A stretch of DNA of 35,562 nucleotides from Deltaproteobacteria bacterium TL4 (GTDB taxonomy: Bacteria > SAR324 > NAC60-12). Where the stretch lies: positions 1-35,562 of the forward strand of contig JBBCAX010000157.1 of assembly GCA_051382335.1 (NCBI GenBank), in the 5' to 3' direction. The notes beneath the pieces are model-generated. The model worked only from the letters and a program-made list of their open reading frames with translations. It made no database searches and was not told the origin of the DNA. Within the stretch, counting starts at the first letter, position 1. Each line of letters begins with the position of its first letter. Below, in pieces: positions 5,207 to 24,673 of the stretch. The translations under genes were made by a program, and so were the position numbers.

Positions 5207-5261
5207 GGCTTGGATCCGTCACTTTGAAATAAAATTGGTAATTCGCATTGATTTGTCTCTT

Positions 5262-8216
5262 ATGATCCTACGAAGATTGTTCCTGGTTTTGCTGTCCGTC
5301 GCCTACCTGACGCTGGGGGCAAGCTATGCCGCGCCTCAAGATCAATATTTCTTGGATAATTTTTTCAAGGCGGTTCAGGGAAAAGATGATTGGACCATCC
5401 TCACACTTGCCATCAGAACGAGCCCTTCTGCTGTGAAACTTGCGCTGGAACAAGAGCTCAATATCAACGTTCCGGGAAAAAACGAATTTGAAGGAATCAC
5501 GCCTTTAATGATTGCCGCCTCTATGGGGCAAGGCGAATCGGCAAAAATACTTGTCGAAAACGGTGCGGACGTTCGTGCGAGCGATCCAACAGGAAAAACT
5601 GCTTTGATGATTGCTTCGGAGGAAGGGTATCCCGAAATCGTTCAATTTTTGTTGACGTCTCATGCGGATATCCATGCAAAATCCAAGGATGGCTGGACTC
5701 CTTTAATCTGGGCCTCAAGAGCCGGGCATACAAAAACAGTGACAACCTTGTTAGCGCATGGCGCTGATATTCAGGTCAAAGATAGTTTAGGAATGAACGC
5801 TCTGATGTGGGCCTCTCAATTTGGTCACGTTCAAACCTTGAAATTATTATTGGCAAAAGGCGCCGATCCTAAAGTCCAAACACTCCAGGGTACCTCCGCC
5901 CTCATGTTAGCCGCCAGGTTTGGACATAGCAAAATCATTCCTTTGCTGTTAGACCATACTTCCAACAATATTGACGTTCAGGAATCAGAGTTTCACCGTT
6001 CCGCGCTCATCCTTGCGGCACTCAATGGACAGTTGGAGGCCGCGAAGCTTTTAGTGGTTCGCGGCGCGAATATTAATATTCAGGATTATCAAGGGGCAAC
6101 CGCATTATTAGTCGCAATCCAGGAAGATCACGTTGAAACCGCCCAGATGTTGATTCAACGTAAAGCAGATGTCAATTTGGGTGACAAAAATACCTTCCCC
6201 TTAGTTGCGGCCGCAGAACGGGGTTATGCTGAGCTCATAGGACCGATGCTCAATCGGGAGGCCAAGATCTCTGTTACTGATCAAGAGGGAAAAACCGTAC
6301 TCATGGCAGCGGCAGGGAATGGTCATTTACCGACGGTCAAATTATTGATGAAGTATGGAGCGGATCTCAATGCTACTGATAAATATAATCGAACCGCACT
6401 CATGTGGGCGGCCGATTACCATCATTTGGAGGTTGCAAAACAACTAATTCAAGGAGAGATTGAATTAAAAAAAAATATCATGTATGCGGCCTCTCAAGGA
6501 TATACTCCCATCCTTCGCTTGCTGTTTGAAAAAACCACAGATTTGAACCAAAAAAATGACCAGGAATGGACCCCCTTGATGTTGGCCAGCAATAATGGGC
6601 ATACAGAAACCGTTCGGATGCTGCTCATCAAAGGTGTTGATGTCAATGCTGCCGGTCAAAATGGATGGACACCTCTGATGCTTGCCGCAGGCTCGGGTTA
6701 TACCGAAACCGTCAGCTTACTCCTCAAAAAAGGTGCGGATGTCCAATTACTTGACCAAGATAACTGGACCGCCTTAACGTGGGCCGCCTCCAGAGGTTAT
6801 ACCGAAACCGCTCAAATATTGATTGAAAATGGTGCCAATGTCAATCACACAGGAGTCAATACGCCTCCTCCCTTGATTTGGGCTGCGTCTAAAGGACACA
6901 CTCAAATGATGAAGCTCTTGCTCGAACACGGAGCCAATGTTAACGGAACAGGGGAGCATGGAAAATCCTCCTTGATGGAAGCCGCCTTGAAAGGACACAT
7001 TGAAACTACACAATTTCTGATTGAACAAGGTGCTAATCTTCACGAAAACCTGCTATTCGCATCAGCTCGGGGACATACAGAGTTTGTAGAGTTACTCCTT
7101 CAATACAAAGCGAAAATCAATACGTTAAATGAAAAAGCCGAATCTCCATTGATCCTTGCGGTTAAGGGCGGGCATTCCTCAACGGTCCGGTTGTTGTTGA
7201 CGAAGGGTGCGGATTTAAATATTAAGAACAAACAAGGTGATACAGCGTTAATGATCGCGGTTGTGAATGGACACTTGGGAATCATCCGTCTCCTCATCAC
7301 CTATGGTGCGGATGTCAACAACTGTGACGCTCAAAAAAATACACCACTGATGATAGCAACACTACGTGGCCAGACGGATATTGTTGATTATTTATTAAAA
7401 CGTGGTGCTCAAATTAATGCGCAAAATCAATATAATCAAACGGCTCTGATGATGGCTAGCCTTAAAGGGTTTACGGGAATTATAGAGCTGTTATTGAAAC
7501 ACGGAAGCAAACTTGATTTAAAAAATCATAACGATCAAACCGCTTTAGTGATCGCTGCGGAGCATGGACATACCAGGGTGGTAGAGACCCTTTTGTCAGG
7601 AGGCGTGGATATTCAGGCAAATGCCTTTAATCGTCATGGAAAAGGCGGAACGGCACTGATTGTTGCCGCAAGAAATGGACATGTGGAGACCGTAAAAGCA
7701 CTGTTGAATGCAGGTGCGGATGTTGACGCCAGAGAACTGATGTATCGCCAAACCGCATTAATGGAAGCGGCTTATAATGGACACGAAGAGACACTCTCTT
7801 TATTATTGCAATTTAAGGCCGATATTCATCAACAAAGTGATTTCGGCGAAACCGCACTGATGTTGGCCTCCTTTAGCGGTCATACGGCAATTGTGAAACA
7901 ACTTGCTGAAGGGGGTGCTGACCTGAATTACCTCAACCAGTATGGTAAAAACGCCATCATGCTTGCAGGTATCAACGGGCATCTGGAAACACTTCAGCTT
8001 CTTATAGAACAGGGTGCTGATTTACAGCAAGTCACCTCTGAAAAACAAAATGTACTGATCTTAGCCGCAATGAATGGCCATCTGGATATTGTCAAAATGT
8101 TGATTTCTCATGGAATTGATAGTCAACTGGAAGATAAATCGGGAGAAACCGCGCTCACCTATGCGAAAAAAAAGGGGTTTTCAGAAATCGCCGATTACCT
8201 CAGTTCCCTTCATTAG
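5262..8216 (+). CDS. Large secreted ankyrin-repeat protein
   Basis: N-terminal signal-like sequence (MILRRLFLVLLSVAYLTLGASYA-A) followed by more than 25 GxTP/ALxxAAxxGH...LLxxGAD repeats. Likely start is ATG 5262; the ORF track starts at 5235. Confidence 0.92.
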   Translation: MILRRLFLVLLSVAYLTLGASYAAPQDQYFLDNFFKAVQGKDDWTILTLAIRTSPSAVKLALEQELNINVPGKNEFEGITPLMIAASMGQGESAKILVENGADVRASDPTGKTALMIASEEGYPEIVQFLLTSHADIHAKSKDGWTPLIWASRAGHTKTVTTLLAHGADIQVKDSLGMNALMWASQFGHVQTLKLLLAKGADPKVQTLQGTSALMLAARFGHSKIIPLLLDHTSNNIDVQESEFHRSALILAALNGQLEAAKLLVVRGANINIQDYQGATALLVAIQEDHVETAQMLIQRKADVNLGDKNTFPLVAAAERGYAELIGPMLNREAKISVTDQEGKTVLMAAAGNGHLPTVKLLMKYGADLNATDKYNRTALMWAADYHHLEVAKQLIQGEIELKKNIMYAASQGYTPILRLLFEKTTDLNQKNDQEWTPLMLASNNGHTETVRMLLIKGVDVNAAGQNGWTPLMLAAGSGYTETVSLLLKKGADVQLLDQDNWTALTWAASRGYTETAQILIENGANVNHTGVNTPPPLIWAASKGHTQMMKLLLEHGANVNGTGEHGKSSLMEAALKGHIETTQFLIEQGANLHENLLFASARGHTEFVELLLQYKAKINTLNEKAESPLILAVKGGHSSTVRLLLTKGADLNIKNKQGDTALMIAVVNGHLGIIRLLITYGADVNNCDAQKNTPLMIATLRGQTDIVDYLLKRGAQINAQNQYNQTALMMASLKGFTGIIELLLKHGSKLDLKNHNDQTALVIAAEHGHTRVVETLLSGGVDIQANAFNRHGKGGTALIVAARNGHVETVKALLNAGADVDARELMYRQTALMEAAYNGHEETLSLLLQFKADIHQQSDFGETALMLASFSGHTAIVKQLAEGGADLNYLNQYGKNAIMLAGINGHLETLQLLIEQGADLQQVTSEKQNVLILAAMNGHLDIVKMLISHGIDSQLEDKSGETALTYAKKKGFSEIADYLSSLH

Positions 8217-8322: not shown

Positions 8323-9210
8323 TTAATTGGTTTGACTGGGATCAATACCAGCTTGCTTCAATAAGCGCAATAATCGTTCTTTTTCTCGCATGGCGGCTTC
8401 TTTTTCTCGCATGGCGGCTTCTTTTTCTCGCATGGCGGCTTCTTTTTCTCGCATGGCGGCTTCTTTTTCTCGCATGGCTGTGTTCACTTCCTCTTTTAGA
8501 TGAGCCAAGTCTTTTTCAATCGTTCTTTGCTGGCGAATGTAATTCACTCTGCTTTGATACAAATGATATTCTCGTTCTTTTTCAGAAAATAACTTCAAGG
8601 TTTCCATGGCCTGCCTCATTTCTTCAGTGTTCATAAATGCTGGAAGCTGTTGATCATCCAAGTCTTGCCCCTCAAGGAATAAATAGGTCCACCGATCCAA
8701 TTCATTGGCAGCTTCCGGTTTTTTCCATTTGTCCAGTTCCAATACATGAATCGACGCGTGTTCACTCAGTGTTACTCCGAGTTCCTTGTCACTCATTTGA
8801 AAATGATGATGAAATGCTCGTGACTCTCGAAATAGATTTCCTGAAATCACCCAAATGGAGACACCGGGTTTTAATTCGTTATAATCTTCACCACTCTTCA
8901 ACTGCGACGCGTACAAATCACTCCAGGTGTAAAGGATTCTTGCTGGTAAACTTGGAAACACAGCCAATTGCACTTCAACCTGATAGATTTGTCCTGAGTC
9001 ATCTTTGGCTTTGACATCCACAATAGAGAGTTTGTCAGAAACGAACTCTTTTTCATTGTACGGATTCAAAATCTCAACCCCGTTTATTCGCTTGGAAAGC
9101 TCAGGACTCAGAACCGCATTCAAAAAATGAATCAGTAGGTTTTTGTTTTTTTCTGAGCCCAACAGGGCCTTAAATACACAGTCGACGAGTGGAATAACGT
9201 GATATTTCAT
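8323..9210 (-). CDS. Rpn family / PD-(D/E)XK nuclease-family transposase
   Basis: DCVFKALLG, LIHFLNAVL, DKLSIVDVKAKD, YQVEVQL and IHVLELDK motifs with a repetitive charged tail. Likely start is MKYHV at 9210. Confidence 0.9.
   Translation of the reverse strand: MKYHVIPLVDCVFKALLGSEKNKNLLIHFLNAVLSPELSKRINGVEILNPYNEKEFVSDKLSIVDVKAKDDSGQIYQVEVQLAVFPSLPARILYTWSDLYASQLKSGEDYNELKPGVSIWVISGNLFRESRAFHHHFQMSDKELGVTLSEHASIHVLELDKWKKPEAANELDRWTYLFLEGQDLDDQQLPAFMNTEEMRQAMETLKLFSEKEREYHLYQSRVNYIRQQRTIEKDLAHLKEEVNTAMREKEAAMREKEAAMREKEAAMREKEAAMREKERLLRLLKQAGIDPSQTN
8377..8478 (-). repeat. 21-bp coding tandem repeat (AAMREKE), about 5 copies
   Basis: TTCTTTTTCTCGCATGGCGGC occurs four times plus an 18-bp partial copy; it encodes an exact heptad. 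Confidence 0.95.
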
Positions 9211-9621
9211 AAAAGTCGTTTCTCTAATTATTGGTAATTTTTGCTCCTGTCTCACCATAAGTATAAAACATTTTGTGGAAGGAGACAATCAGGAAATCAT
9301 GAGATTTATTTTCAGCAGTTCAAAAGAAATGAAACTGAAACTTTCTTTGGTGGACAACTACCGTCTTTGTCATAAAGATTCTGATTCCCTGTTCTGAACT
9401 TGCAATTTCCTAAAAACTCCACATAATTCATCAAAAAGTATCCTCGCAACTTCATAAATAAACCACCTCCATTGATAGAAGTGGGACGAACGCAATCTTC
9501 TGATAGATTTAAACTGAAAATGAATCCTCTTAACTCGTTGAAGAAAACGCTCAATCATTTCATAGATGTTGCGGAGTCACTAAAATCCGATAACGAAAAT
9601 ACTACAAATTCAGGAAACTCA

Positions 9622-13976: not shown

Positions 13977-14423
13977 TCAGTTTATGCCTAATTCATAAAG
14001 CCGCAAATCCAGAGTGTCTACATCTTTTGCCAAGTTGCTGATGGTTGTGCCTTCACAAATGGTTTTAAGCTGTTCTCGCACGCCTGCGATCTTTTCATGC
14101 ACAGGACAGGGTTTATTACAGCCGCAGCCTGGAAGTCCCAAGGCACACTCGGTGAACATACTTTCACCATCGATGATCGAGATGATATTGAGCAACGATA
14201 TATCTTGTGGAGCGCGAGCTAAGGTCACTCCTCCTTTGGCGCCCCTGTTTGAATTGAGAACACCGGCTTTGGTTAATTTCTGGAATATTTTGGTTAGGTA
14301 GGTGAATGAAATATCCAGTCTTTGCGAAATTTGATGGATTGGAATATACTCTTCTCCTCGATTTAATGAAGAAATATACACTACTGAGCGAATTGCATAA
14401 CGACACGTTTTTGAAAATATCAT
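13977..14423 (-). CDS. Rrf2 family transcriptional regulator (Fe-S binding type)
   Basis: FSKTCRYAIR, YLTKIFQKL and SNRGAKGG motifs plus the Cys cluster CALGLPGCGCNKPCPVH. Confidence 0.93.
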   Translation of the reverse strand: MIFSKTCRYAIRSVVYISSLNRGEEYIPIHQISQRLDISFTYLTKIFQKLTKAGVLNSNRGAKGGVTLARAPQDISLLNIISIIDGESMFTECALGLPGCGCNKPCPVHEKIAGVREQLKTICEGTTISNLAKDVDTLDLRLYELGIN

Positions 14424-15232: not shown

Positions 15233-16513
15233 ATGAACACATTGGCAGGGCAGGCCTCCAGCGAATCGAAAAAGGAAAGGTTGTCTTCACATCTCAAGGG
15301 GATTGATTTGACTCAAATTGATCCTATTAGAACCGCAGTGCGAGACGGAAGGATAAAACAAGTGCGACGGATCACCCTGAATGGAAATGATGCATTTGCT
15401 AAGGGTGCACTTGAAGTGGGAGCTCTTTTTTTTGCGGGATATCCCATTACCCCCTCTACCGAGGTGTTGGAATATGTTGCAAAATACATTTTCGCACGGG
15501 GAGGTTCGTACTTACAGATGGAAGATGAAATTTCAGGAATTGCCGCGGCAATCGGAGGTTCCCTTGGTGGCAAAAAATCATTTACCGCAACATCGGGGCC
15601 TGGATTTTCACTCAAACAAGAAAATTTGGGATTTGCCTGCATCACTGAAATTCCGTTGGTCATCATCAATGTACAACGTGGCGGTCCCTCAACGGGAGGT
15701 CCTACCGATGTAGCGCAATCGGATGTCATGCAAGCTCGCTGGGGAACTCATGGGGACCATCCGATTGTGGTCATCAGTCCTTACTCTGTGCAGGAATGTT
15801 ATGAGGAAAGCATTCGTGCGTTCAACCTTTCCGAAAAATACAGAACCCCTGTCATCCTTCTAAGTGACGCAAAAGTCAGTCAAATGAAAGAAGCCTTAAT
15901 TCTTCCTCCTGAAGATCAAGTTCCTGTTGTCAACCGAACCAAACCCACGGGGGCCCCTGAAGATTACGAGCCTTTCGGCCTTACTCCTGGCGGAGTTCCT
16001 CCCCTCGCAGGCTTTGGAGAGGGCTACCGTGCCCATTTCACAGGGCTTTACCATGACAAAAATGGACTTCCTACCAAAGACAAGAAGGTGATTGATGAGC
16101 AACTGAGAAGAATTCATGCGAAGTTGGAAACTCCTCAAGCGCGTGCTGATATTCTAAAAACTGAGAAATTTTTGATGGAAGATGCCGAACTTGTGGTGAT
16201 CAGTTACGGAATCACGGGTCGAGCGGCAAAAGATGCTGTTATTGAAGCACGAAGAGCTGGTGTCAAGGCGGGCTTGCTTCGTCCTTTAACCTTGTGGCCT
16301 TCTGATGAAGAATCCATCACCAGTGCGTTAAGTCAGGCAAAAAAAGTGGTTGTCGCCGAATTGAATTTAGGGCAGTATGTTCTGGAAGTGGAACGTTTGG
16401 CCTATGTTACGTCGCAACGAACCCAAAAGGTACCTCCCCCTATTATTCGAGTGAACCGGGTAGACATGGGACTCATCACGCCCAATGAAATTATAAAGGA
16501 GCTGCACTTATGA
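15233..16513 (+). CDS. korA: 2-oxoacid:ferredoxin oxidoreductase alpha subunit (KorA-like)
   Basis: GNDA, AGYPITPSTE, QMEDE, TATSGPG, QRGGPSTG and ELNLGQ motifs; strong RBS AAAGGAG. Confidence 0.88.
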   Translation: MNTLAGQASSESKKERLSSHLKGIDLTQIDPIRTAVRDGRIKQVRRITLNGNDAFAKGALEVGALFFAGYPITPSTEVLEYVAKYIFARGGSYLQMEDEISGIAAAIGGSLGGKKSFTATSGPGFSLKQENLGFACITEIPLVIINVQRGGPSTGGPTDVAQSDVMQARWGTHGDHPIVVISPYSVQECYEESIRAFNLSEKYRTPVILLSDAKVSQMKEALILPPEDQVPVVNRTKPTGAPEDYEPFGLTPGGVPPLAGFGEGYRAHFTGLYHDKNGLPTKDKKVIDEQLRRIHAKLETPQARADILKTEKFLMEDAELVVISYGITGRAAKDAVIEARRAGVKAGLLRPLTLWPSDEESITSALSQAKKVVVAELNLGQYVLEVERLAYVTSQRTQKVPPPIIRVNRVDMGLITPNEIIKELHL

Positions 16514-17991
16514 AACCAGGAAGAATGTACCGCTCATTGATGCGGAAAAGTATATGGTGTGAGGGATGTGGTTTGGGAAATCTTCAACAAATCCTGATTC
16601 AATCCGTTGTGGACCATGTTTCCGAGCGCCTGGGCGTTGATTCCTCAACCAACGCAGGAATCGAAAAAATAAAAAATAACATCGCCATGGTCAGCGGAAT
16701 CGGCTGTACCTCCCGCATGCCGGGGCATATGGATGTTAACTCACTGCATACCACTCACGGCAGGTCGTTAGGGTTTGCGACAGGCTTAAAAATGGCGAAT
16801 CCTGAGTTGACCGTTGTCGTCGCCGCGGGAGATGGTGACATTTTCGCGATTGGAGGCAATCATTTCATTCATGCCGCACGTCGAAATCCAAACATGACTT
16901 TAATTGTTTATGATAATCAGTCCTATGGTATGACAGGCTCACAACACTCTCCAACCTCACCCTTGGGACAAATGGGGACGTCTGTTCCTTTTGGTGTGTT
17001 TGAAGCTCCTTTTAATCTGGTGAACCTGGCGTTGGGCGCGGGTACGTCTTTTGTGGCTCAAGGGGCGATAACAACGAATCAGGAGCATCAGGATCAACTG
17101 GAAGAAATGATTAGGGCCGCCTTAAACTACAAAGGTTTTTCCTTTGTTAATGTCCGTGGAACCTGTCACACGGGCTGGGGAAAATATAATGGACTTGCAG
17201 AAGCCTATCGTTACCGTCAAGATATTGAAAGCAAAGTGGTCCCTGTAGAACGTTGGCGTGAATTGTCCCCTGCGGAACAACAAGGGAAGATTCCTGTCGG
17301 GATTATCCATCAAGATGATCGACCTGATATTCAGAGCTCCTCTTCGTATTTGCAAGCCGTGAAAAAATCCCAAAGTTTTCAGGCGAGTAAAAAAGAAGCG
17401 CTGGAAACCATCACCTTGCAGGACAATGATCCTCTAGCGAACTTGAAACGAACCAGCATTCGTTTTGCCGGAACAGGAGGACAAGGCGTGATAACGGCCG
17501 GTGAAATTGCGCTTCAAGTCGCGTTGCAGTCCAACTTCAATGGCGTGTATACCAAAAACTATGGTCCTGAGGCTCGTGGCGGAGAAGCTTTTTCTGATGT
17601 CATTATTTCTCAAGGCGAGGTTTACTTTCCGCAAACCGACAAATTGGATATCCTGTTGGCATTGAATCAAGAAACCTTTGATAAGTTCAGGGACGTTGTC
17701 GCTGAAAATGGAAAAATCATCGTCAACTCTACACAAGTCACCGAAACTTACAGTGATCCTCGTGTGATTCTTTCGCCCATCGGTGAACTGCTTTCAAGTC
17801 AAGTCCGTCCTCCCAAGCGGGATTTGGGGATCAACGTTCTTGCGCTTGCGGTAACTCTTGCGTACTTGGACTTACTGCCTCAAAAAGTCATAGAAACTGT
17901 AGTGATGCAAGGCGTAGGACGAAAAAATCCGGTGTTGAATCAAAAAGCGTTAGATGTCGGGTTTCAAGAAGCCGCACGACTAAAAAGATGA
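16510..17991 (+). CDS. Fused 2-oxoacid:ferredoxin oxidoreductase beta+gamma subunit (KorB-KorC-like)
   Basis: Beta part: WCEGCG, SGIGC, HTTHGR and the TPP motif GDGD...N. Gamma part: IRFAGTGGQGVI and YGPEARGG. Confidence 0.88.
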   Translation: MKPGRMYRSLMRKSIWCEGCGLGNLQQILIQSVVDHVSERLGVDSSTNAGIEKIKNNIAMVSGIGCTSRMPGHMDVNSLHTTHGRSLGFATGLKMANPELTVVVAAGDGDIFAIGGNHFIHAARRNPNMTLIVYDNQSYGMTGSQHSPTSPLGQMGTSVPFGVFEAPFNLVNLALGAGTSFVAQGAITTNQEHQDQLEEMIRAALNYKGFSFVNVRGTCHTGWGKYNGLAEAYRYRQDIESKVVPVERWRELSPAEQQGKIPVGIIHQDDRPDIQSSSSYLQAVKKSQSFQASKKEALETITLQDNDPLANLKRTSIRFAGTGGQGVITAGEIALQVALQSNFNGVYTKNYGPEARGGEAFSDVIISQGEVYFPQTDKLDILLALNQETFDKFRDVVAENGKIIVNSTQVTETYSDPRVILSPIGELLSSQVRPPKRDLGINVLALAVTLAYLDLLPQKVIETVVMQGVGRKNPVLNQKALDVGFQEAARLKR

Positions 17992-19445
17992 AAAATATAA
18001 ACAAAGGAGAGGTTATGATAAGTCAGGCCCAAGCCATGCCTGTTGCTGCAGGAGCGAGCTTGAAAAAAGTCGCGGCTCCTTCACCGGAGCTATTAAAAGA
18101 GCTGGATCAATTGATTGAACTCGCGCAGCGGCAAGGATTTCGTATTGACAGTATTCACGTTGCTCAAGCGATGCTCAATCAGAAAATGTTGAAAACTCTG
18201 GAACAAGCAATTTTCAATCCTGATCGTCTTGCCGAGATAAAAGGCAAATCGTCCCGGATTGAGTTCATCGTGGAAGGTTCGATTCCTTCATATTTACTCA
18301 CTGAGCCTGCACTGAAAAGTGAGCCTATTTATAAGCAGGTCATTGGCTATAATCTCTGTAAATCATGTGGACTTTGCATTGATGTCTGTCCTAAAAAGGT
18401 TTACAAGGATGATGGGTACGGAAAACCCGACGTGGCGTTACGCCATACAGAGGAATGTACCGGGAATTTCCAGTGTCGCCAATGCGTTGATATTTGTCCT
18501 GAGAATACGATTCATCTCACCTTGGCGGATCCCATATTTAAATCGGTACTCTATGTGCTCTTGCCGAACCCTTATCAGGAAGCCATGCGACAAACGGTTG
18601 CTCGCCCGGATTTTTTTGTGCTGAACCCCTTGGTCCAAGGTTTGCTGTTGAGAATCCCTGAGAAAATGCCAGCTAAAGATCTTCGAGTCAGTCACAAGAT
18701 TTTGGATCAGTGCAATTTCTTTCCGATTTTGAAGATTAATGGATATTCCAGGCATTTGGTGGATTCTAAAACACCAGAAGCGGATCTTAAAACTTGGGCT
18801 AAAGAGAATTTCCGTAATCCTGAATTGGTCTTGGACGCGGTCTATTTTATTTATTCCAAGCTTCCGAGTATTCCCTCTTTGAAGCAGGGGAAGTATTCTT
18901 TCGATCATCTCATCAACCGAGTGATTGATGAAATCATACTTCCGGAAATTGCCATTCAGCAAGAAGGGGGATTAGACTTTCTGAGACAAATTATTGAAAG
19001 TGGCTTTGTGGCGGAAGTTTTTTCAGGAGCGAAAAAACGACCTATTGGAGGCTTATTGCCTCCAGGAACGTCTGTTGCGTGGAAAACACCCTATGGCAAT
19101 GACGTTCCCAAATACACTCACTTGGAGAAATGTCTCGGCCCTGAGTGTGGACTTTGTGTGACTCACTGTCCTGAAGGAGCTGGTGGCGAAAACGCGGCAA
19201 TTCGAATGGTGCCCTTGGTTCCCCTAGGTGCCATTCCCAGTCTTGTTCGAGGCTTGAGTACTTACTTGCTCAATTTGGAAGAACCCTCCAATTCTCCGAA
19301 AATTGAGGATATCAGTAAAAAACAGCCTTTTGAATTTGAAGTCAACCTTGATTACTGTAAAGCCTGTGGCATTTGCATTAGTTGTTGTCCTCACGATGTT
19401 ATTGAATCGGATGTACGCATATTTGATATTGGAGAAAGTACCTGA
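17988..19445 (+). CDS. Protein with two 2x[4Fe-4S] ferredoxin domains (KorD-like plus PorD-like fusion)
   Basis: First domain CKSCGLCIDVCP / CTGNFQCRQCVDICP. Second domain GGLLPPGTSVAWKT...CLGPECGLCVTHCPE...NLDYCKACGICISCCP. Confidence 0.8.
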   Translation: MKNINKGEVMISQAQAMPVAAGASLKKVAAPSPELLKELDQLIELAQRQGFRIDSIHVAQAMLNQKMLKTLEQAIFNPDRLAEIKGKSSRIEFIVEGSIPSYLLTEPALKSEPIYKQVIGYNLCKSCGLCIDVCPKKVYKDDGYGKPDVALRHTEECTGNFQCRQCVDICPENTIHLTLADPIFKSVLYVLLPNPYQEAMRQTVARPDFFVLNPLVQGLLLRIPEKMPAKDLRVSHKILDQCNFFPILKINGYSRHLVDSKTPEADLKTWAKENFRNPELVLDAVYFIYSKLPSIPSLKQGKYSFDHLINRVIDEIILPEIAIQQEGGLDFLRQIIESGFVAEVFSGAKKRPIGGLLPPGTSVAWKTPYGNDVPKYTHLEKCLGPECGLCVTHCPEGAGGENAAIRMVPLVPLGAIPSLVRGLSTYLLNLEEPSNSPKIEDISKKQPFEFEVNLDYCKACGICISCCPHDVIESDVRIFDIGEST

Positions 19446-21715
19446 TGAATGAAATAGAATTAAAAACACACCCTGGTGTTTTAGCAAATCGAAAAAAGGG
19501 ATTAATTCCTCTCGCCCAATCAATCCAGGCCGCGAGTCAGGGCAAGATTGGCATTACATACAATGGAATGCGTGTCGGAGACTTAAAAGTTGAAAAGCTC
19601 ACGGGGATTGACTCTGAAGAGGCACAAAAACTTTTATCTCAAATGATGAAATTTCCAATGCGTTCTGGCGTGTATCCTCTGGAAAAACTGATGAAACTCA
19701 AAAAGAAAGGTTTCGCGACAGAGAAGATACTCGAAGAACTCTATCGAAGTCATCTGCCCTTTGTGGCAGAAGATATTGTGCCTTCCATCGAGTCAAGACT
19801 TTTGAAAGTGTTCCTGCTAGGTAGTGCAGGAACCGGAGTCGTATCGGCGGTACAAGATATGGTTAACGCCTTTATTTCCGCGGGCTATTACGGTCGGGCT
19901 TTTCCTTTGTTCGATCCTTCCAAAAAGGGAGCACCGGTCAGTGGTTATGGAATGGTCAGCAGAGACCCCATTCTTTGTCATTCTCCTTTTGAGTCGCCTG
20001 ATATTATTTTACTGTTTGACCAAAAGATGTTTCCTCAGTTGCGTCAAAACTTAAAAAAGTATAATAAGGACAGTTCCAAAGAAATAGCGATTCTGATCAA
20101 CTCTCCAATGACTCCCAAGGATTTTAGACGGTCCGCTGATTTTAACGACCCTAATCCTCTTTATACCTTGGATGCCAGCTTACTTTTAGCGGGTAAGCGG
20201 ATGCCTCCCAACTACGCTATGATTGGCGGTATGTTGGGGGTGTTGGGTGAAGATGCTGTTGATTCAGTAGCTTTTTCCAAAGTTGTGGCGCAATCATTAC
20301 TGGCTAAATTTGGTCCAGGAAATAAAGTGGATGCCAATGTGGAGGCGTTTACCAAAGCCATTGAAAGTGTAAAAGGGCCAGAAATTCTATTGGAGTCACG
20401 GAAAGCTTTAGGAAAAATTAAAGCGGCAAAGGTTCCCAAGCATCAAACCGCCTACTGTGAAGATGGCAATCGTGCGATTGCGAGAGCGCTCGGGATGGTT
20501 CTCAATCAGTTTCCTTCTGTGGTCGCCGCTTATCCGATCACGCCTCAAACTCAAGTTGTTGAATACTTGGCACAGATGATTGCGGATGGAGAGCTTTCGT
20601 CAGAAGGTGTGACACCGGAGTCTGAACATGGAGCCGGCGGAGCCGTATTAGGGGCAGCCCGTGACAGAGTCCTTGCCTTTACAGCGACCTGTTCTCAAGG
20701 TTTTGCGTTGATGAGTGAGTTGATTCACACGATGGCCGGGATGCGCATGGGGAATGTTTTGATATCCAATGTGCTTCGGTCATTAAACGCTCCCCTGGAT
20801 GTGGAAAATGATCATAGTGACCTTTACAAAGTAGGCTTGGATGCTGGATTCTTGGTCTTCATGACCAAAGATGTACAACAGGCGTTTGACTTTCATCTGA
20901 TGGCCTATCTGGTGTCGCTTTACGCGGAATATCGGGAAATTTCGGTACCTGAAGGTCAGGATCGCCTGTTTGAAATGCTTGCTGATCGAACAGTGATGCT
21001 TCCAGCTCTTGTGGCGTCTGAAGGGTTTGAAGTCAGTCACGCACCGGAGTACTACCTTGCGATTGAGCCTAATCAAGTGGAAGCCCTGTATAATGATCCG
21101 TTTTTCAAATACATTAAACAGTTCGTCAATACTCCAAATCGAAGTATCATGGGAGCACTCCAACTGAGTAACGCAAGGTTGGATACTGATTTTCAACGTC
21201 ATCAGGCGATGGAATTGGCGCATGATATTATCGAAATCGTCTTCGAAAAATTTGAAAAATACTCGGGACGGCGCTATGACTTCATCCACTGCTATAATGC
21301 AAAAGCTTCTGAAATTATTTTTGTTGTGGCTGGTGCGGCTAATGGAACTTTTGAGGAAGTTGCCCGTCAGTTTGCTGTGGTCGGAATCAATGTCGGTGTG
21401 GTCCATCCCAATGTTTTACGCCCTTTTCCTAAAAAAGAATGGGCGGCTCTGCTAAAAGGCAAGAAAGTGTTTATCTATGATCGGGATGATCCTTTTGGTG
21501 CGGTAGGAGGTCGTCTTTATACTGAAATCGCGGGAGTGGTCAATGAGTATAAACTTGCCGAGAGTGGAACGGCTCTCTATTCCCGGATTTATGGTCTTGG
21601 CGGTAAAACCCCCTCTCTTTCGCTAGCAAGAGATGAAATCTTAAAAGCCTTGAAAGATCAAGCCGGAGAGCTTCAGCTTTCTGCGGAAAAACAATATGTT
21701 GGAGTGAACCTCTAA
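19445..21715 (+). CDS. Fused pyruvate-type 2-oxoacid:ferredoxin oxidoreductase gamma+alpha subunit (PorC-PorA-like)
   Basis: Gamma part: LGSAGTGVVSA and AFPLFDPSKKGAPV. Alpha part: DGNRAIA, AYPITPQT, ESEHGA, TATCSQG, RPFP and YGLGG. Confidence 0.85.
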   Translation: MNEIELKTHPGVLANRKKGLIPLAQSIQAASQGKIGITYNGMRVGDLKVEKLTGIDSEEAQKLLSQMMKFPMRSGVYPLEKLMKLKKKGFATEKILEELYRSHLPFVAEDIVPSIESRLLKVFLLGSAGTGVVSAVQDMVNAFISAGYYGRAFPLFDPSKKGAPVSGYGMVSRDPILCHSPFESPDIILLFDQKMFPQLRQNLKKYNKDSSKEIAILINSPMTPKDFRRSADFNDPNPLYTLDASLLLAGKRMPPNYAMIGGMLGVLGEDAVDSVAFSKVVAQSLLAKFGPGNKVDANVEAFTKAIESVKGPEILLESRKALGKIKAAKVPKHQTAYCEDGNRAIARALGMVLNQFPSVVAAYPITPQTQVVEYLAQMIADGELSSEGVTPESEHGAGGAVLGAARDRVLAFTATCSQGFALMSELIHTMAGMRMGNVLISNVLRSLNAPLDVENDHSDLYKVGLDAGFLVFMTKDVQQAFDFHLMAYLVSLYAEYREISVPEGQDRLFEMLADRTVMLPALVASEGFEVSHAPEYYLAIEPNQVEALYNDPFFKYIKQFVNTPNRSIMGALQLSNARLDTDFQRHQAMELAHDIIEIVFEKFEKYSGRRYDFIHCYNAKASEIIFVVAGAANGTFEEVARQFAVVGINVGVVHPNVLRPFPKKEWAALLKGKKVFIYDRDDPFGAVGGRLYTEIAGVVNEYKLAESGTALYSRIYGLGGKTPSLSLARDEILKALKDQAGELQLSAEKQYVGVNL

Positions 21716-21901
21716 CAGACATCAAAGTTTAACCCGCTTCCGTTATGCTTAGGACAGGTTAACGTTGGGATTTTGTAGATCAAAACCTGCAGCTAAACTT
21801 TGGAAAAAGTAGAGTGCGCTGCAACAAAAAAAGCGCACTCGCAGTCAATCTTTTATCCGAAAAATGATTTAAAATATTCTGTCTAATTTTTGAAGGTACT
21901 A

Positions 21902-24673
21902 ATGGCAAATACAGATTTTTTCTATAAACTAGCAACCAATCTCCAAGACGCAATTCCTATTGCGAATCAAGTTATTAAAAAGGCACAAACTCTTCCGGCA
22001 GAGGTTAATTTAATGATTTCTGACCGCCCTTTAGCCATTAAGGTGTCCAGTCTTTCTCCAGAGCACCTTCTAGGGCTGATTGCTTATGAAAAAATTCATC
22101 TGGTACAAGGCATTGTCGATTTGATGAGTCTGCTGGGAACAGAAATTCGTAAAGGAAGCTATTCCTTAAACTCCTTGTTGGAAGAAGTAAGTAAGCTCCC
22201 TTCTTTTACTTCTAATCCGGAACAGTCCTTAGCACTTCAAGAAATCCAACAGAAAGGAAGTCAGTTCTCCGATTTACCGCAAATCGAAAATGGGATTCAA
22301 ACTCAACTCCTGGACTTGTCCAAGAAACTCAATATTTCACTGGAATACCTCTTGGGAAATTTGGGAAAAGTCAACCTGTTGATTAAGCATTTGGGCGTGC
22401 GACTCATCACCTTAAACGTGAGTAGTTTATTTCATAACTACCAAAGCGGGTTTTACGAAATTGATCTGCAAAATGCCTCAGCAATCAAGGCTCCAACTAT
22501 TCTTAAACGGGCAAAAGCCTTAAAAGATCAGGGAACTACGGTAGAAATATTTCAAAAGGGTGAATTTAATCGAAAACTCACTGAGATTAGTGTTCAAGAA
22601 CTTGAAGAATGCATTAGTGACACCGAGGACGGTTATCAGGTTTCTTCAGAGGACTTTTCCAAGTTCATTGATGCTTTGTTTAAATTCGAAGAAAAACGAT
22701 TGAAAACGGCACCAACGCTTTCACTTCAAAATTTGTTGGCCTGCTTCCGATTTTCAACAAAGGATCGTGATGTTGTCGCGGTTCCCGCCGTGATCCAGCA
22801 GGATGATCCCCTACGATGGAAAGAAACACCTCTAGGTCAAGCCTTGCTTGTTATGAGGGAAAACTTGAACTGGCTTGCTGTCTCCATTGGCATAAAAAAC
22901 GCTGGTGATTTTGAAACACTGAGTCGGGATCCTGAAATTGACAAGCAGGTTGAAACACTGATAAAGCTCTCTGAAGGGCTTTCGATTACGTTGTTGTCCT
23001 CACAGAAACGGAAGGTGGTGGAGAGTCCGATCAATGAATTAAAGAAAGTTGAAATTCTTTTTTCCTTATACTGTGTTGCTGTCTTGGAGAAAAGAAAATT
23101 CGTGGAAGTACTCGAAGCGGCCGTCAGTATTCTTCGGTTTATTCATAATTTGGAAAACCATGATCCGATTGTCAATTTAAACGATCTCATCATTCCCAGA
23201 CTCGCAGGCGAAACGTATGTAACGCTGCTGGGAACACAGGGGCTGATTTTGCGAAATACCCCCATTGTTTATGCTTTGGGGAGTTTACGAAGTTTGCAAC
23301 ATAAGGTGCAGTTTACAGTTCAAGGCATCAATGACAAAGCCATTTCACTGAAAGACATCAGCATTGAAGACTTTCGACGTGCTGTCATCATGATGGGGAG
23401 ACAACTCAAAGAACCTCATTCTCCAGAACGGGTTCTTGCGATTATTCGTGATAAAGTCGTCCCTGAGATTGCTCAACTTCCTCAACAAGTGATCGCGGAA
23501 GGTGAACATGATTTAGGTAGAGTTGTTGAACTTTGTCTTTTAGGGGTTCCCCCCAGATACCCGTTACGCCGCCCCTGGAAAAAAATTAACCTGGACCCGC
23601 TTACCTACATGGGAAGTGGTTTGGAACCCGGAATTCGGAACTGTCTCGGATGTCCTGTTAACTCGCTTTACGGGCTTGTCATCAAGTCAGCAATTGCGGA
23701 TGGTTTTGACGAAATCATCACCTACGAAGCCACAGGCTGTTTTGAGGTTTATTCTGGGATCTGGCCTTACACCGGGAAGAAATTACCCTCCATTCACGGA
23801 GTTTTTGGGGGGGCTCCTTCCGAATTACTGGGAGGACTTGCCGCTAAACGAGCACGATATAAATTTGCGCGAAAGACAGATGCGATGGAAGCGTATATGA
23901 AAGCCAATGGAGAAAGGATTCTGCATCTTGGATGGGGTGGGGATGGTGCCACCTTTGACATCGGGTTTGGAAATCTTTCGGGGCTATTCTCTCGGTTACA
24001 AAAACTTTCAAAAGATGAATTGGCACCAGGTCTTTTTCAGCGTGGAATGTATGTCTGCTATGACAATGAAGGCTATCAAAACACTGGGAATCAATTTTCT
24101 GCGGCAAGTGCTCCGGGAGGGTATACAACGACTAACCCGATGGGGAAGGCGCAACCTCTTGGAAATGATTTACGTAAAAAACCAATAGTTGAGATCATCG
24201 CGGATCATGGGGTACCTCTTTCCGCACGGATGAATATTCATCGTCAAGAACATATCACTCGTGTTATTTCTCGTGCGCTGGAAGATGGAGCCCAGGGAAG
24301 TTTTATCCATTTTCTACAGCCTTGTACCACAGGTTGGAAGTTTGCGGCTGATAACTTAACCTACGATTTGGCAGGCCTTTCAGAAGAAGGCGGTCTCTTT
24401 CCTCCTGTTACGATTGAATATGGTGTCGCTTATCTTGAAATGTATCCGACTCCACGGAATTTGGAACATTCCTTCTTGAAACTTCAATCTCGCTTTCGAC
24501 ATCTCATGGGAAGCTCAGCGATTGCGAAAGAAAATATGCAGCTTGTCATGAACTACTATCATGAAGAGTGGCATCGCAATTTAAAACTGACAGGTTATGA
24601 AGGTGAATTGCCTCGTGCGGATCGACTGGGATACTTGGAAGAAGAGCATCGCAAACCAAGAATAACCTCTTAA
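21902..24673 (+). CDS. Pyruvate-type 2-oxoacid:ferredoxin oxidoreductase beta subunit (PorB-like) with a ~570-aa N-terminal extension
   Basis: C-terminal CLGCP, ATGCFEV, GGDGATFDIG, YDNEGYQNTG and QPCTTGW motifs. The N-terminal region is not recognised. Confidence 0.82.
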   Translation: MANTDFFYKLATNLQDAIPIANQVIKKAQTLPAEVNLMISDRPLAIKVSSLSPEHLLGLIAYEKIHLVQGIVDLMSLLGTEIRKGSYSLNSLLEEVSKLPSFTSNPEQSLALQEIQQKGSQFSDLPQIENGIQTQLLDLSKKLNISLEYLLGNLGKVNLLIKHLGVRLITLNVSSLFHNYQSGFYEIDLQNASAIKAPTILKRAKALKDQGTTVEIFQKGEFNRKLTEISVQELEECISDTEDGYQVSSEDFSKFIDALFKFEEKRLKTAPTLSLQNLLACFRFSTKDRDVVAVPAVIQQDDPLRWKETPLGQALLVMRENLNWLAVSIGIKNAGDFETLSRDPEIDKQVETLIKLSEGLSITLLSSQKRKVVESPINELKKVEILFSLYCVAVLEKRKFVEVLEAAVSILRFIHNLENHDPIVNLNDLIIPRLAGETYVTLLGTQGLILRNTPIVYALGSLRSLQHKVQFTVQGINDKAISLKDISIEDFRRAVIMMGRQLKEPHSPERVLAIIRDKVVPEIAQLPQQVIAEGEHDLGRVVELCLLGVPPRYPLRRPWKKINLDPLTYMGSGLEPGIRNCLGCPVNSLYGLVIKSAIADGFDEIITYEATGCFEVYSGIWPYTGKKLPSIHGVFGGAPSELLGGLAAKRARYKFARKTDAMEAYMKANGERILHLGWGGDGATFDIGFGNLSGLFSRLQKLSKDELAPGLFQRGMYVCYDNEGYQNTGNQFSAASAPGGYTTTNPMGKAQPLGNDLRKKPIVEIIADHGVPLSARMNIHRQEHITRVISRALEDGAQGSFIHFLQPCTTGWKFAADNLTYDLAGLSEEGGLFPPVTIEYGVAYLEMYPTPRNLEHSFLKLQSRFRHLMGSSAIAKENMQLVMNYYHEEWHRNLKLTGYEGELPRADRLGYLEEEHRKPRITS

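Follow-up and report, generated by a model that had tools for sequence, protein, structure and literature searches.

Anaerobes that oxidize acetate, such as Desulfuromonas and Geobacter, couple 2-oxoglutarate:ferredoxin oxidoreductase (OGOR) and pyruvate synthase through ferredoxin. In the 2-oxoacid:ferredoxin oxidoreductases (OFORs), electrons pass from thiamine diphosphate (ThDP) to a proximal cluster in the beta subunit and then to medial and distal clusters in the delta subunit (PMC12307629, PMC12337175). A 2026 review of the pyruvate:ferredoxin oxidoreductases (PFORs) describes one-, two-, four- and five-subunit forms as well as polyferredoxin appendices, and its sections on these forms mention no two-enzyme complex (PMC13768988). 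The PFOR of M. maripaludis with PorE/F and the five-subunit Por/For of Aquificae, as presented in that review, carry extra Fe-S proteins or subunits, but there is one catalytic type per complex, and in no form described there are two different OFORs connected by a single delta. We analyzed a stretch of 35,562 nucleotides from Deltaproteobacteria bacterium TL4 (the window; contig JBBCAX010000157.1 of assembly GCA_051382335.1), which contains a five-gene operon (g1 to g5) in which two OFORs come with a single, fused delta chain, g3. No description of such a two-OFOR architecture was found in the literature covered, which excluded most subscription journals. The architecture is real, conserved and apparently undescribed, and there is a fair chance that the operon represents a new enzyme activity.

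The open reading frame (ORF) scan of the window gave five co-oriented frames (15233-16513, 16510-17991, 17988-19445, 19445-21715 and 21890-24673), and domain scans showed that they encode two complete sets of catalytic domains, in agreement with an earlier reading made from the letters of the DNA (the sequence-only reading). That reading also had the first four genes overlapping. The overlaps of g1 with g2 and of g3 with g4 stood, but the one between g2 and g3 did not, as a ribosome-binding site favored the ATG at 18015 for g3, which gives a protein of 476 aa (485 aa with a start at 17988) and leaves a gap of 23 bp behind g2. For g5, the most likely start was likewise an ATG with a ribosome-binding site, at 21902, giving 923 aa. 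Although 186 bp separate g4 and g5 in the window, g5 was taken as a member of the operon because it adjoins or overlaps g4 in other loci. A GC-rich hairpin with an A-rich loop, present in a single copy in the genome, lies in this gap (21811-21842); the entire gap folded no better than shuffled sequences. The GC content of the operon (44.9%) was nearly equal to that of the genome (43.4%). The features are listed in Table 1.

Table 1. Positions in the window of the operon genes, their main domains and the divergent regulator gene.
Feature	Position	Strand	Basis or remarks
g1, Kor/Oor-type alpha (domains I-II), 426 aa	15233..16513	+	POR_N + PFOR_II; PRK08659; best PDB matches 1yd7, 8ys5_A
g2, Kor-type beta with fused gamma, 493 aa	16510..17991	+	TPP_enzyme_C + POR gamma; best PDB match 8ys5_C
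g3, double-delta subunit, 476 aa	18015..19445	+	helical N-domain, Fd1, spacer module, Fd2; two Fer4
Fd1 (first ferredoxin domain of g3), KorD-type 2x[4Fe-4S]	18357..18497	+	8 Cys in 48/48 aligned sequences; cysteines span 18357-18495
Fd1-Fd2 spacer module of g3, ~120 aa	18669..19037	+	
Fd2 (second ferredoxin domain of g3), PorD-type N-terminal arm + 2x[4Fe-4S], ~50-aa insertion	19038..19388	+	cysteines span 19131-19386
g4, Por-type alpha with fused gamma, 756 aa	19445..21715	+	POR gamma + POR_N/PFOR_II; best PDB match 9bt4_B
g5, extension + Por-type beta, 923 aa	21902..24673	+	domain scan; best PDB match 9bt4_C
g5 extension, ~560 aa	21902..23581	+	
Divergent Rrf2-family regulator	13977..14423	-	several Cys near C-terminus; 809-bp gap to operon

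The first two genes resembled OorDABC of H. pylori (PDB 8ys5; PMC12307629), which gave the best PDB match of g2 (E 2e-54) and one of the best for g1 (E 1e-84). Against the Kor-type alpha model PRK08659, g1 scored 481 bits and exceeded the cut-off of 411. Its YPITP motif, E97/E99 and R149 of RGGPSTG were invariant in 13 sequences, with the exception of G150 in that motif (at least 90%). The CoA-binding gamma domain of g2 covers residues ~314-490, and in the beta part the proximal-cluster cysteines (C17, C20, C66 and C219), G107-D108-G109 of the ThDP motif GDGD, and R69 were invariant in 12 sequences. Alignment of this part with 8ys5_C, 6n2n_B and 5b48_B showed that the cluster cysteines, the GDG and the basic residue after GIGC are all present. 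The counterpart of R69 is an arginine in the 2-oxoglutarate enzymes of H. pylori and M. marinus and a lysine in S. tokodaii OFOR1, where the K49I mutation abolished 2-oxoglutarate activity (PMC5020499). The locus and OorDABC thus have in common the proximal-cluster cysteines, the arginine after GIGC and a dicluster delta. However, OorDABC has four subunits, whereas here beta and gamma form a single chain and the delta is contained as a domain in g3, alongside a PorD-type domain; the separate gamma and delta chains of a four-subunit Kor/Oor OGOR are lacking in g1, g2 and Fd1.

For the other half, the PFOR of M. acetivorans (PDB 9bt4) was the best PDB match of the g4 alpha domain (E 2.5e-40) and of the beta domain of the g5 family (E 7e-30), and also, weakly, of the g3 model. 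The domain scans agreed with the sequence-only reading of g4 as gamma plus PorA and of g5 as an extension plus PorB; what it had missed was an extra N-terminal domain of ~110 aa in g4, and the start of g5 was moved as described above. In g4, this extra domain (residues 1-112) is followed by the gamma domain at ~120-310 (domain match 128-307) and the Por-type alpha domain at 340-750. In g5, the PorB-type beta domain at 578-900 is preceded by about 560-570 residues with no domain assignment. All 21 proteins with the g5 extension measured 906-951 aa, over a searched length range of 507-1616 aa. T366 of the YPITP motif, E394 and R445 of g4 were invariant in nine sequences, as were C581, C584, C613, C808, D681 (of GDG) and N727 of g5 in 15, where V616 was also kept. 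The g4/g5 pair therefore retains the YPITP motif of M. acetivorans PFOR and its active-site Thr, Arg, Val and Asn. In contrast to that enzyme, the gamma domain is fused ahead of alpha, alpha and beta carry extra domains of 110 and 560 aa, the delta, which has an insertion of ~50 aa, follows a KorD-type domain in the same chain, and all scores lie far under the equivalog cut-offs. PorA models scored 226 and 212 bits with g4, compared to 147 for Vor, 118 for Oor-oxalate and 114 for Pad. An invariant g4 loop, PLDVEND, contains an Asp that corresponds to the loop Asp of oxalate oxidoreductase and a Glu at the position of a Trp in M. acetivorans PFOR. Assignment of g4 as an oxalate oxidoreductase alpha subunit was considered and rejected, because it has YPITP and not YPIRP, in which Arg replaces Thr (as defined in PMC5020499).

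Since g1 alone passed a curated cut-off and g2 to g5 fell below the equivalog cut-offs, the substrates were inferred from active-site residues, which point to a 2-oxoglutarate-type enzyme for g1/g2 and a pyruvate-type enzyme for g4/g5. Both enzymes look active, with the catalytic residues conserved in each pair. The two halves resemble known four-subunit OFORs, but neither is filed under Oor or Por, given the chain separation and the equivalog scores.

The two ferredoxin domains of g3 were compared with the deltas of 38 Kor-type loci and 26 Por-type loci. Fd1 aligned end to end with the deltas of Kor operons (63 columns, 98.9%) but with PorD over 22 columns only. Fd2 aligned with PorD in full, including the N-terminal arm (80 columns, 97.6%); its N-half by itself matched PorD_Arch (E 0.002), and it contains the GGLLPPGTSVAWKT...DYCKACGIC motif. 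The assignment of the first domain as KorD-like and of the second as PorD-like with its signature motif was thus borne out, and the two domains resemble different delta types rather than both the same one. The first four cysteines of Fd2 were conserved in 48 of 48 aligned sequences and the last four in 47 of 48. The AlphaFold model of g3 (pLDDT 85, pTM 0.70) fits domains in a fixed arrangement rather than on a floppy linker.

A search for g3 gave 74 homologues, 69 of which covered at least 85% of the query with 46-100% identity (window protein included), mostly at 46-56%. When 1.84 billion representatives were searched with a profile, eight g3 proteins came up at E <= 1e-30, comprising the query, fragments and apparently frameshifted copies; beyond these, the matches were mostly small stand-alone ferredoxins resembling Fd1. 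The homologues retain the fused g3; a search for short forms yielded four proteins, none of them on a contig longer than 2.3 kb. Alignment-based scans located 18 genome and 14 metagenome loci, all 18 of the former in metagenome-assembled genomes (MAGs). The same five-gene architecture recurred there in the order g1-g2-g3-g4-g5 in 32/32 loci, with no rearranged or split case; 22 showed all five genes and 10 stopped at a contig or locus edge. The 32 loci are not independent, as some metagenome loci duplicate genome loci (for example L050/L006, L054/L009 and L055/L013). Groups that appear in the record titles are WOR-1, Acidobacteria, Myxococcaceae, Sulfuritalea, Rhodocyclaceae, Casimicrobiaceae, Alcaligenaceae, Beijerinckiaceae, Ectothiorhodospiraceae and others. 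The cassette is rare: two of 301 genomes had it in the family of L009, and 40 relatives of the window genome had no full-length g3, with three weak ferredoxin matches only. The five gene trees of 19 copies agreed in pairwise distances (rho 0.75-0.96) and had 9-14 of 16 splits in common, which shows joint inheritance of the five genes. Because two alphaproteobacterial copies fell with or inside the betaproteobacterial ones in every gene tree, the cassette appears to move as a whole, and in these comparisons the operon behaves like a self-contained cassette that is transferred horizontally as one unit. In every gene tree, the cassette of L013, recorded as an uncultured Enterobacteriaceae, paired with the gammaproteobacterial L012; an enterobacterial host is unexpected, and the label may be loose.

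We consider it an even call that the operon encodes one bifunctional complex in which the 2-oxoglutarate- and pyruvate-type sites are internally coupled via g3. The KorD-type half of g3 is predicted to plug into the former enzyme and the PorD-type half into the latter, and electrons from the decarboxylation of one 2-oxoacid would then run through the Fe-S clusters to the carboxylation of the other acyl-CoA. The simplest reading of two deltas in one chain would be a head-to-head, six-cluster wire between two ThDP sites. The predicted five-chain protomer has a mass of 339 kDa with two ThDP and six [4Fe-4S] clusters; because all solved OFORs are dimers of a core (PMC13768988), a (g1-g5)2 particle of 678 kDa with the two g3 chains as struts is suggested. 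The net reaction would be 2-oxoglutarate + acetyl-CoA <-> succinyl-CoA + pyruvate, in which CO2, CoA and electrons cancel out. This is the same net chemistry as that of ferredoxin-coupled OGOR and pyruvate synthase, which, unlike the fused g3, involve separate enzymes and a diffusible ferredoxin. Published values for carboxylation at -440 mV are +15.5 kJ/mol for PFOR and +9.5 kJ/mol for OGOR (PMC13147460, Table 1), and their difference puts the formation of succinyl-CoA and pyruvate at ~ +6 kJ/mol (errors of 6-8 each). Being this close to equilibrium, the coupled reaction could be pulled either way. Under anoxia, a facultative host would make pyruvate from acetyl-CoA without free low-potential ferredoxin, and the reverse direction would yield 2-oxoglutarate from succinyl-CoA. 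A ferredoxin, a flavodoxin or an NAD(P)H module was found neither inside the operon nor as a common feature of its flanks in the loci compared. The chance that the complex is a carrier-free acyl-CoA:2-oxoacid exchange machine of a new enzyme class, with a six-cluster wire, an uncatalogued scaffold module and a mobile 9.4-kb cassette, falls a little short of even; such a machine would give facultative bacteria an ATP-free and ferredoxin-free path from acetyl-CoA to pyruvate.

Several observations weigh against internal coupling of these two substrates. Many ordinary OFOR operons likewise have no ferredoxin gene. The scores of g1/g2 were below the Oor equivalog cut-offs (388 vs 579 for PRK09627 and 221 vs 364 for PRK09628), and the PorA/PorB scores were below theirs (226 vs 550 for NF040682, PorA_Arch, and 144 vs 405 for PRK11865). 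The R69 residue of g2 is no proof of 2-oxoglutarate use, since K49R in S. tokodaii OFOR1 shifts the preference to pyruvate (PMC5020499). The C-terminal motif of Fd2 alone fits KorD (36 columns, 97.9%) as well as PorD (97.6%), a comparison biased by the selection of the Kor delta set with a pattern from this last motif. Furthermore, 24 of 25 stand-alone loci best matching Fd2 adjoin Kor-type genes, but this count is uninformative because the sample was drawn with that pattern, which was judged to exclude most PorD. We compared the gene content of 19 genomes carrying the operon (carriers), of which the window genome is 100% complete and 2.6% contaminated and the others are MAGs of unstated completeness. 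Most carriers need no such acetate route, because 13 of them have isocitrate lyase; the window genome had no match to it. The window genome, with its one copy of the operon, also has a NifJ-type PFOR (G000:C54:22164-25679) and a separate KorAB (G000:C25:5930-7757).

It is unlikely, though a serious alternative, that the enzymes co-assemble on g3 while each half trades electrons with an outside ferredoxin or flavodoxin, the fusion and modules serving to set stoichiometry, shield from O2 or sense a ligand. The ~120-aa module separating Fd1 from Fd2 suits this view, and protection from O2 of the kind that domain VII gives to D. africanus PFOR (PMC13768988) would be useful because most carriers have aerobic-type SucA. 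The weak partner specificity of PFOR in vitro, noted in the same review, agrees with it as well. On the other hand, a fused delta and an order kept in every locus exceed the needs of co-regulation alone, and no carrier protein accompanies the cassette.

Rather improbable is internal wiring with other 2-oxoacids (2-oxobutyrate/propionyl-CoA, branched, aromatic or C2) at one or both sites, leading to a different exchange. The distance of the scores from the equivalog cut-offs and the Asp and Glu of the g4 loop would be consistent with it, and the PFOR/OFOR boundary is ill-defined according to PMC13768988. However, g4 has YPITP, the PorA models outscored those of Vor, Oor-oxalate and Pad, and the flanks of the loci compared contained no conserved catabolic pathway gene. 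We regard it as very unlikely that g3 binds one enzyme only, with the second dicluster as a polyferredoxin-like extension of the wire comparable to methanogen PorE/F: PFOR clusters of Methanococcus and Methanothermobacter do encode polyferredoxins (PMC13768988) and the C-terminal motif of Fd2 fits both delta types, but both enzymes come with a gamma and a beta of their own, g3 is the sole delta of the operon, and Fd1 and Fd2, taken in full, each match a different type of delta. The notion that the role of the operon is to provide the two carboxylations of an autotrophic reverse tricarboxylic acid (TCA) cycle, the context proposed in the sequence-only reading since both enzyme types are steps of that cycle (PMC13147460), is hardly tenable, as the ATP-citrate-lyase domain PF16114 passed its cut-off in one of 19 carriers and not in the window genome and SucA occurred in 15 of 19, the search having left out citryl-CoA synthetase/lyase and reversed citrate synthase.

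A succinyl-CoA synthetase domain, which speaks for the proposed coupling, was found in 18 of 19 carriers, and a NifJ-type PFOR passed the cut-off in three. Taken together with the counts for SucA, isocitrate lyase and ATP-citrate lyase, carrier gene content argues against a reverse-TCA role and also against the view that the operon simply replaces the glyoxylate shunt. Six carriers (G054:C1:367047-369413, G048:C2:18865-21237, G049, G052, G057 and G044) have a frame of 1640-1700 aa that matches the NifJ model at ~4-705 only, an unusually long and divergent one-chain OFOR.

The alpha/beta modules repeated on g3, g4 and g5 are predicted to serve as a scaffold. The same fold occurs in the extra N-terminal domain of long-type glyceraldehyde-3-phosphate dehydrogenase (GAPDH; PRK08289; L164-L170; residues 4-115 of PDB 8jb1), with an identity of 13% between the modules and the C. 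glutamicum domain. In hhalign, the modules reached at most 1.9% with this domain (control 4.3%), the alignment on the GAPDH side being shallow (7 sequences). Considering that the fold is common to them and that no operon module had a match in Pfam, the modules and the GAPDH N-terminal domain may form one uncatalogued domain family.

Upstream of the operon, the product of the divergent Rrf2-family gene is a possible local Fe-S/O2 regulator of the operon; the gene was not conserved beside other copies, and no gene was widely common to the flanks of the loci compared. Elsewhere in the window, a gene at 5235-8216 (+) encodes a 993-aa protein with ~20 ankyrin repeats, with an FtsW/RodA gene upstream of it. 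Two genes encode Rpn-like proteins of the YhgA-like and PD-(D/E)XK transposase families (957-1838, +; 8323-9288, -), the latter with a short tandem repeat in the DNA coding for its C-terminal part.

Reductive carboxylation by OFORs needs a very low-potential electron donor (PMC13768988, PMC13147460). If the proposed coupling is true, an oxidizing OFOR wired to a carboxylating one would sidestep this need. The operon would also make it possible to test directly which factors set the direction of OFORs, a question called unresolved in PMC12337175, and would serve metabolic engineering as a portable set of five genes. Annotation would change for genes now labelled as hypothetical, ferredoxin or single-enzyme subunits, and the repeated module, as an uncatalogued domain, is worth a structure regardless. 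For facultative anaerobes, the coupled complex would mean a new route of acetyl-CoA assimilation.

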